Shown here in pieces: positions 20,216 to 21,094 of a DNA stretch of 64,000 bases (its first letter is position 1; each line of letters opens with the position of its first letter). The stretch comes from an uncultured Fodinibius sp. (GTDB lineage: Bacteria; Bacteroidota; Rhodothermia; Balneolales; Balneolaceae), in contig CAJXMJ010000002.1 of assembly GCA_913056455.1 (NCBI GenBank), positions 599,665 through 663,664 of the forward strand, written 5' to 3'. The translations under genes and the position numbers were made by a program. The notes beneath the pieces were generated by a model that worked only from the letters and a program-made list of their open reading frames with translations, did not search any database and had not been told where the DNA came from.

Positions 20216-21094
20216 TTATTTTCCAATAATATTTAAATCTCGATATACATCGGCAATTTCAGATCCATGTCTTTGCTCCACTTCTTCTATAAAGTTCCCT
20301 TGCCTTATGTCATTTATCATAGAATTATATTTTTCTTTCATCCAACTGAATTTGATTCTTAAGTCAGCCTTAGAAAAATGTGATGAGCCTCTCATTCCAC
20401 TACGTATTACATCTGCAAGTTTCTTTACATATTTAGGGAATCCAATTATTGGTTCATCAAATTCTGCCATAGTTTTAGCAAAATAGTCAACATAAAACAT
20501 CCCATCAGTATCTTTGCTAAGAAGCTCATTCATGATGTATTCTTGATCTTCCTGAGCATTGATCTCATCTTGATGTCGTGTTGCTAATTCTATGATTTTG
20601 CGATCTAATATTATTCTTGGGTAAAGGGCTGCCTTACTTTCTAATAGATGGGTTGATACTAGTGCTGGTCCGAATATTATATTTTCATCATGGATAAGTT
20701 TTCCAAATCCTACTGCTCCTCGACAAAGAATGCCTTTGTCAATGAAGTTGATAATTAAAAGCTGCAAATTCAGCAGAGTGTAGAATATTTCTCCTTCTGT
20801 TTTAAGATTAAATGAGATAACAATTGTGTCAGAAAAAATTGAAATTCTTTTGTCACCCCGTTCTATTTTATCTATTCCAAGTTCAACTGTATCACCAACA
20901 TCTAATACATTTTCAATGATTTTATAGCAATTATAAACCTCATCTATTTTTTCTGGATTGTCTTGGCCATGGCTATCAGTTGTTTCTTGAATCATTTTCT
21001 TGAAGCCAAGAATATCAATAAAAGCAATTACTCTTTTGCTATAATTCATGAATTGGATTATTTGGCCTAACCTAGTCTTATACATATCATTCAA
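20216..21094 (-). CDS. Orphan protein with nucleotidyl-cyclase/palm-like motifs (hypothetical)
   Basis: VIAFIDILGFKKMI, ISIFSDTIVISF, CRGAVGFGKL and FGPALVSTHLLESKAALYPRIIL follow the order of class III cyclase-homology-domain motifs. The gene is very AT-rich. The tracked start is TTG; an ATG is at 21085. Confidence 0.4.
   Translation of the reverse strand: MNDMYKTRLGQIIQFMNYSKRVIAFIDILGFKKMIQETTDSHGQDNPEKIDEVYNCYKIIENVLDVGDTVELGIDKIERGDKRISIFSDTIVISFNLKTEGEIFYTLLNLQLLIINFIDKGILCRGAVGFGKLIHDENIIFGPALVSTHLLESKAALYPRIILDRKIIELATRHQDEINAQEDQEYIMNELLSKDTDGMFYVDYFAKTMAEFDEPIIGFPKYVKKLADVIRSGMRGSSHFSKADLRIKFSWMKEKYNSMINDIRQGNFIEEVEQRHGSEIADVYRDLNIIGK

Follow-up and report, generated by a model that had tools for sequence, protein, structure and literature searches.

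A solitary cyclase-fold relative of the toxin PanT in an integron-type cassette beside purM of an uncultured Fodinibius

The nearest characterised relative of the gene described here is PanT, the toxin of a type II toxin-antitoxin (TA) module. In the Burkholderia prophage phi52237, the adjacent genes gp8 and gp9 were validated as a PanA-PanT toxin-antitoxin pair, the toxin being assigned to cluster T47 (Kurata et al., 2022; PMC8832971). PanT arrests the growth of E. coli without a cognate effector, and PanA neutralises it by forming a complex with it; inhibition by PanT is strongest for transcription, followed by translation, and replication is affected only weakly (Kurata et al., 2022). Under PanT, ATP is unaffected and GTP is slightly reduced, and ppGpp rises in a RelA-dependent manner that is not the cause of toxicity; the designation of PanT as a nucleotide cyclase rests on an HHpred probability of 97% (Kurata et al., 2022). 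Single-gene phage defences and TA modules have also been found as cassettes of mobile and sedentary integrons (bioRxiv 10.1101/2024.07.02.601719). Here we analyse a minus-strand gene in a 64,000-nucleotide (nt) stretch of DNA, hereafter the window, from an uncultured Fodinibius sp. (GenBank assembly GCA_913056455.1, contig CAJXMJ010000002.1, positions 599,665 to 663,664). The gene encodes a homologue of PanT with a predicted class III cyclase-homology (palm) fold, has no effector or antitoxin gene adjacent to it, and forms a single-gene, integron-type cassette beside purM. We read it, with slightly better than even confidence, as a solitary cyclase-fold toxic effector of the PanT superfamily, of abortive-infection or addiction type, in a mobile single-gene cassette.

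The connection to PanT was found by a tblastn search of phage genomes, which matched a hypothetical protein of P2-like Burkholderia prophages (E 7e-9). In phi52237 the homologue is gp8 (YP_293707.1), encoded in prophage cargo with the integrase on one side and portal gene Q on the other; 3 nt separate it from the upstream gene gp9, whose product has a SocA/Panacea domain (PF13274, E 8e-18). Alignment of the family profile with gp8 by hhalign gave a probability of 99.2% (E 7e-20) over ~210 residues, and the motifs FIDILGFK, FSD, RGG..G..H, FGPA..AY..ES, PRVIL, and DG..YI are common to the family and gp8. PanT has the same size as the window protein, the same layout of a cyclase domain followed by C-terminal helices, and is likewise carried on mobile DNA. 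However, PanT belongs to a bicistronic TA module in prophage cargo, whereas the window gene is a single open reading frame (ORF) in an integron-type cassette, and neither it nor 79 genomic loci of its homologues have the Panacea antitoxin. The stretch from purM to the gene and the cassette itself have no ORF for PanA (DUF4065/PF13274); when phi52237 PanA was compared by phmmer with ORFs translated in six frames from the 79 genomic loci and from one plasmid locus, nothing matched, and four annotated plasmid copies of the family are also without PanA.

The fold assignment rests on structure prediction. The first-pass annotation of this DNA had proposed a class III cyclase palm domain from four motifs, all of which are present in the ORF exactly as quoted. 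An AlphaFold2 model built from a 40-sequence alignment (predicted local distance difference test score, pLDDT, 78; predicted template modelling score, pTM, 0.78) shows a beta-alpha-beta-beta-alpha-beta core followed by four helices. The palm-fold call is supported by a Foldseek search of the PDB, in which the top 47 matches were all catalytic domains of class III adenylyl or guanylyl cyclases (E 6.6e-6 to 1.5e-3, target TM-score up to 0.69), not domains of an unrelated fold; the motif resemblance to cyclases thus goes beyond chance at the level of the modelled fold (E 6.6e-6). Class III domains, such as those of CyaC from Spirulina (1WC0-1WC5), Ma1120 from M. avium (4WP8), and human soluble adenylyl cyclase (4CLK), are essentially the only significant structural match. 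A GGDEF domain (6pwk) and Cas10 (6ifu) came at ranks 48-49 with E values of 0.016-0.048, against 6.6e-6 for the cyclases. The resemblance that had been seen to palm domains of Cas10 and minimal CRISPR polymerases (mCpol) is not supported, given this ranking, a second motif that reads FSD, and no match to the PADLOC mCpol model. A viral structure library gave giant-virus cyclase-like matches only and was uninformative.

The window protein nevertheless differs from class III cyclases in having no PF00211 profile membership and no regulatory domains, and in possessing an additional conserved C-terminal helical bundle that contains K233 and W236. PF00211 did not match it even at E<=10, and a search of the PDB with the family profile found no cyclase. 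Alignments of that profile by hhalign to the C1 fragment of soluble adenylyl cyclase (probability 8%) and to a genuine PF00211 protein encoded next to a family member (probability 0.5%) were insignificant and gave no usable residue register. A phmmer match between a 292-amino-acid (aa) reading of the ORF and human soluble adenylyl cyclase (E 0.0035) was lost with the 277-aa protein and with the family profile. The C-terminal bundle, modelled alone, reached a pLDDT of 86.5, and Foldseek found no fold match for it in the PDB (best E = 3). The C-terminus had been described as unassigned over about 120 aa; it does remain without a fold match, over a shorter length of ~80 aa (residues ~196-277). 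A phmmer alignment of residues 191-252 with sigma-factor region 2 (E 0.6-1.5) raised the idea of an RNA polymerase-docking C-terminus, which was rejected because the confidently modelled bundle has no PDB fold match.

Residue conservation was counted over 80 sequences of the family, the most divergent having 23% identity. D12 (codon 21014-21016) is present in 79 of the 80, the remaining one being gapped, and S73, D74 (codons 20828-20833), R110 (codon 20720-20722), E137, and P144 in all of them; R145, K233, and W236 are kept in 78-79. In the model, D12 lies at the end of beta1, S73-D74 in the beta2-beta3 turn, and R110 in beta4, and the same positions in class III cyclases hold the two metal-binding Asp residues and a phosphate-binding Arg, the register of D12 and D74 against the cyclases being taken from motif and secondary structure, not from superposition. 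The family therefore shares with class III cyclases two metal Asp and the beta4 Arg at equivalent positions, and the first-pass expectation of a conserved Asp pair is borne out. In contrast, the transition-state Asn and Arg of cyclase alpha4 (GxxVNxAxR) are not conserved. Their substitution had already been noticed in the window protein, and it extends to the family: position 131 is Val, Ile, or Ala, with Asn in nine of 80 sequences, and position 135 is Glu, Ile, Thr, Leu, Gln, or Met. In the helix equivalent to cyclase alpha4, the window protein also carries T133 and H134 (codons 20648-20653), where 94% of the 80 members have Ala and Tyr. One metagenomic representative, P0127 (475 aa), is a tandem duplication of the whole domain, in which the first copy keeps the first Asp and has lost D74 (the Asp of FSD) and R110. 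Duplication with a degenerate first copy hints at a dimeric active site, and the layout of one degenerate half mirrors the C1/C2 pseudo-heterodimers of adenylyl cyclases.

The gene had been called an orphan, which does not stand: its family is merely unannotated. A word-indexed search returned 642 close homologues, all labelled "hypothetical", with a length of about 280 aa and no Pfam domain, and an exhaustive profile search found 9,777 representatives of 50%-identity clusters at E<=1e-3, and 5,242 at E<=1e-10. With few exceptions, the best 150 representatives are single-domain proteins of 240-300 aa. Bacteroidota, Gammaproteobacteria, Gracilibacteria, and other groups have members with ~45% identity, and more distant ones come from Firmicutes, Spirochaetota, and Campylobacterota; the spread across phyla is patchy and horizontal. 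Relatives are carried by 81 plasmid records, and the DNA of an enterobacterial family copy had no match in complete E. coli genomes. Searches of Pfam, NCBIfam, and PADLOC with the window protein gave no credible match. In the literature we found no named defence system for the family and no work on the PanT toxin family later than Kurata et al. (2022).

The ORF is intact at 20216-21094 and yields 292 aa when read from a TTG at 21094, the length given in the first-pass annotation. The ORF was confirmed and this length was not: translation probably starts at the ATG at 21049, 15 aa further in, to give 277 aa. The TTG start is doubtful because homologues begin with MxY(E/S)xR at the position of that ATG, because the database copy P0001, which is 100% identical to the window protein, has 277 aa and starts MNYSKR, and because a cassette box (GTTAGGCC, 21064-21071) would sit within the putative 5′ extension. 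The identical protein is present in several contigs of one metagenome, in the same purM and insertion sequence (IS) context. As the earlier reading had it, the gene is more AT-rich than its neighbours, with a G+C content (GC) of 0.28-0.35 against ~0.48 for purM and 0.54 for the IS110-family element, and it lies between purM upstream and, downstream, an IS110/IS116-family transposase (18890-19852) and an attC-like array (Table 1).

Table 1. Features of the cassette locus and of kinase genes next to homologues (positions are those of the window unless a locus is named).
Feature	Position	Strand	Remarks
Coding sequence	20216..21049	-	277 aa + stop; probable true start ATG 21049-21047; database copy P0001, homologues
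N-terminal class III cyclase-homology (palm) domain, residues 1 to ~195 (predicted)	20465..21049	-	AlphaFold2 model, Foldseek
C-terminal helical region, residues ~196-277, near-invariant K233 + W236	20219..20464	-	Model, alignment; no known fold match
Upstream boundary box GTTAGGCC, R'-type GTTRRRY	21064..21071	-	14 nt before ATG
Downstream box GGCCTAAC (GTTAGGCC on + strand), R''-type RYYYAAC	20205..20212	-	3 nt past stop codon; attC start
purM	21234-22238	-	Directly upstream; PF00586/PF02769
IS110/IS116-family insertion sequence, approximate ends	18836..20200	+	Transposase 18890-19852; PF01548, PF02371; GC 0.54
Distal part of the gene's attC: bulged hairpin GCGCATTAACGCGGACGTGC ... GCACGCCGGTTATGCGC, then CGTTATAG	18700..18835	-	Imperfect hairpin, single extrahelical bases
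Rest of attC-type array: three more ~125-nt repeats	16995..18332	-	Between single small ORFs and TA cassette
121-aa membrane ORF in array	18331-18696		
70-aa ORF in array	17955-18167		
Phd/Doc toxin-antitoxin pair in array	17126-17724		
PD-T4-6-like kinases upstream of homologues	L027:8064-10001; L029:8707-9804; L032:8357-9976; L035:4639-6102		Spacing 1-nt overlap to 196 nt

The mobile, AT-rich cassette setting proposed at first pass is upheld by inverted boxes, four attC-type repeats, and the IS110-family element, and the box that had been placed at the gene's end was located just past the stop codon. Only two GGCCTAAC octamers occur in the window; they are inverted to each other, flank the ORF, and are part of a 12-nt perfect inverted pair. 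Inverted box pairs of at least 7 nt flank eight of 77 family members and 36 of 527 other ORFs, and cassette-type inverted boxes of at least 9 nt were seen at six other family loci, all in Bacteroidota. Four homologous attC-type repeats of ~125 nt lie in one orientation with a mean column identity of 70% and a common GGACGTGCCTCGCC core; two of them fold as long bulged hairpins with modest z-scores (~-1.5), and the other two are degenerate. The IS110-family element, whose terminal inverted repeats are at 18828-18851 and 20161-20184, splits the attC of the gene between the R'' box and the hairpin, a position that recalls the attC-targeting IS1111 group. The array is flanked, among other genes, by purM and by genes for a beta-propeller protein and a D-Tyr-tRNA deacylase (the last as already annotated on the identical metagenome contig). 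Among the window ORFs scanned, a set short of every ORF in the window, there was no tyrosine recombinase to serve as integron integrase; with no integrase adjacent, the array is taken as an integrase-less attC cluster, similar to the clusters of attC sites lacking integron integrases (CALIN). The locus is a single-ORF integron-type cassette and, within this short array without an integrase, the unit closest to purM. As in the defence and TA cassettes of integrons, a promoterless single ORF is combined with GTTRRRY and RYYYAAC boxes and an attC-type bulged hairpin, and a TA pair is among the neighbouring cassettes; unlike them, this one has no adjacent integrase and a broken attC, and its defence role is one that we infer. 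There is room for one ORF only in the cassette, which argues that the protein works without a dedicated partner.

Some further features of the surrounding DNA can be recorded. Just past the purM stop codon, at window ~21161-21215, lies a perfect palindrome, TACACATAAT-ATGC-ATTATGTGTA, and ACACATAATAT recurs ~30 nt beyond it, between purM and the cassette boundary; the palindrome could be a terminator or the remnant of an attachment site. Distant from the gene, at 42807-43790, the window encodes a helix-turn-helix WYL-domain regulator (PF13280, PF08279). A promoter and terminator scan of the locus gave background level only.

To compare the genomic neighbourhoods of the homologues, 1,323 ORFs taken from the 79 loci were clustered by BLAST. 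No effector or antitoxin gene is adjacent to the window gene, consistent with the initial finding of no effector partner among the window ORFs, and the search for a gene that homologues might share as a partner was negative across the 79 loci, where most immediate neighbours are singletons. The best non-self cluster, HsdM, is present in eight of the 79. Open reading frames of ~310-335 aa recur downstream and were considered as a hidden partner; they proved to be unrelated genes (HNH, Mrr-CTD12, DUF2971, a cyclase, and unassigned genes). Homologues are not consistently placed among housekeeping genes: their neighbours are variable and often belong to defence or mobile DNA. The family gene lies inside a type I restriction-modification (R-M) operon in one locus (L023) and directly after HsdR in another (L008), and other neighbours include GmrSD, MmeI, PLD, HNH, Mrr with ABC-3C CTD12, Abi_C, PD-T4-6-like kinases, PglX/type IIG, Upx, and DrmC-like proteins. 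Four plasmid copies with annotation either stand alone or have IS elements, integrases, VapBC, or an AbiEii-family gene next to them.

Individual loci show closer arrangements. In four Bacteroidota loci a Ser/Thr protein kinase gene (PD-T4-6-like) is directly upstream on the same strand (Table 1); kinase and family gene could form a clade-specific two-gene unit, or could merely be neighbouring single-gene defences. In a Porticoccus metagenome-assembled genome (L010:10892-11842), a canonical PF00211 cyclase of 316 aa with D...GD...N..R motifs is encoded 30 nt downstream of a family member on the same strand, an arrangement seen in that locus alone. In a Leisingera plasmid (L087:1585-2463), a distant family member is preceded, at a distance of 14 nt, by the end of a gene that encodes a nucleotidyltransferase toxin of the AbiEii/AbiGii family.

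A mechanism can be outlined for the reading that we favour, that of a solitary PanT-like toxic effector. The predicted palm domain, followed by its short helical bundle, would dimerise and form the active site at the interface, where the D12/D74 pair may hold two Mg2+ ions and R110 the triphosphate of a nucleoside triphosphate (NTP) for a nucleotidyl-transfer reaction. True cyclases position the ribose and the transition state with the Asn/Arg pair; since the protein has no such pair, it probably makes something other than a canonical 3′,5′-cyclic nucleoside monophosphate (cNMP) signal. By homology to PanT, the protein itself would be the growth-arresting effector, acting on transcription first and then on translation, as a one-gene abortive-infection or addiction-type module in a solitary, horizontally mobile form. 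Low or conditional expression, or dependence on some trigger, may keep it from doing harm in place of a dedicated antitoxin. A bolder version, which we regard as rather doubtful, would make the whole family of ~10,000 clusters a widespread and unrecognised set of one-protein abortive-infection systems, with the window copy a functional, integron-mobilised example. Having lost the Asn/Arg pair and gained the Lys/Trp-bearing helical bundle, such proteins would be triggered directly by phage, would need no antitoxin, and would act either through a toxic nucleotide of non-canonical kind that they synthesise or by nucleotidylating a macromolecule of the transcription or translation apparatus.

Several observations weigh against the solitary-effector reading. 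The link to cyclases exists only at the level of fold and HHpred, with the PF00211, profile-against-PDB, and hhalign comparisons all negative. Identity to PanT is only ~24-27%, the toxicity of the clade to which the window protein belongs is extrapolated from homology, and even for PanT the published work names no product (Kurata et al., 2022). The deviation at T133/H134 could mean that the activity of this particular copy is altered or weakened. A toxic protein without an antitoxin is paradoxical, and no regulatory mechanism is visible at the locus, where the promoter scan stayed at background. The defence association is suggestive, consisting of raw neighbour counts without a baseline comparison; six of ten tight neighbours had no PADLOC match, and some loci have ordinary neighbours, such as the transporter and peptidase in L050.

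Other explanations include that of a decaying toxin. The gene could be the orphaned toxin of a former TA pair, silent because it is promoterless behind purM, or attenuated, or else paired with an unrecognised small-protein or RNA antitoxin. The type II TA nature of the nearest characterised relative, the Phd/Doc cassette in the same array, the A133T and Y134H changes at two positions that are 94% conserved, and the IS110-family insertion as a sign of array degradation are all compatible with this; yet the ORF is intact with every other invariant residue kept, the identical protein recurs in several metagenomic contigs in the same context, the cassette has no space for a second ORF, and thousands of clusters in the family, subject to strong purifying selection, are as a rule solitary too, so that this locus is no special case; together these points make the reading unlikely. 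An accessory enzyme outside conflict, for example a regulatory or metabolic nucleotidyltransferase hitch-hiking on mobile elements, would suit the ordinary neighbours of some loci, the six of ten tight neighbours that lack a defence match, and the absence of the family from the defence database searched (PADLOC), and integron cassettes and plasmids do carry many non-defence functions. We nonetheless judge it quite improbable, as one member, PanT, is demonstrably toxic and controlled by an antitoxin, the distribution across phyla is extremely patchy, and family genes are repeatedly placed in type I R-M operons, beside Abi, HNH, Mrr, and BREX-type genes, and in prophage cargo.

The first-pass annotation had framed the gene as the signal generator of a nucleotide-signalling system of the Pycsar, CBASS-like, or Panoptes-like kind. 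Such a true cyclase, Pycsar-like or making another cNMP, would produce a cyclic nucleotide upon infection, and an effector located elsewhere or since lost would kill or arrest the cell. The class III fold, the conserved metal Asp pair, the frequent placement of the family in defence islands, and the PF00211 cyclase 30 nt downstream of one homologue can be read in this way, and a cyclase-fold protein in a defence-island or mobile context is what Pycsar (PycC with PycTM or PycTIR) also presents. However, neither PycC nor the other cyclase and mCpol models of PADLOC matched, there is no adjacent effector, and no effector-like partner (transmembrane, TIR, or similar) is conserved in the 79 loci; the cassette holds one ORF only, and the Asn/Arg pair needed for efficient cyclisation is lost. 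The only characterised relative, PanT, is moreover itself the toxin and arrests E. coli without any cognate effector. For these reasons a Pycsar- or CBASS-like role is disfavoured, and we consider a signalling cyclase very unlikely here.

A cyclase fold is normally tied to second-messenger signalling, and the evidence assembled here points instead to a cyclase-fold protein that is the toxic effector itself and is without a partner in most of thousands of lineages. None of Pfam, NCBIfam, and PADLOC has a model for the family, and only one paper deals with any member of it. The window gene would be a variant, carried in a cassette and without an antitoxin, of a toxin family that is known but has received very little study, and it is this variant that is new; the window also documents a small integrase-less attC array beside purM, with an IS110-family element in one attC. 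The product or target, once defined, would add new enzymology to the biology of toxins and immunity. Working out the family would explain how a solitary toxin stays safe, and would provide an annotation for thousands of "hypothetical proteins" that are encoded by defence islands, plasmids, prophages, and integron cassettes.

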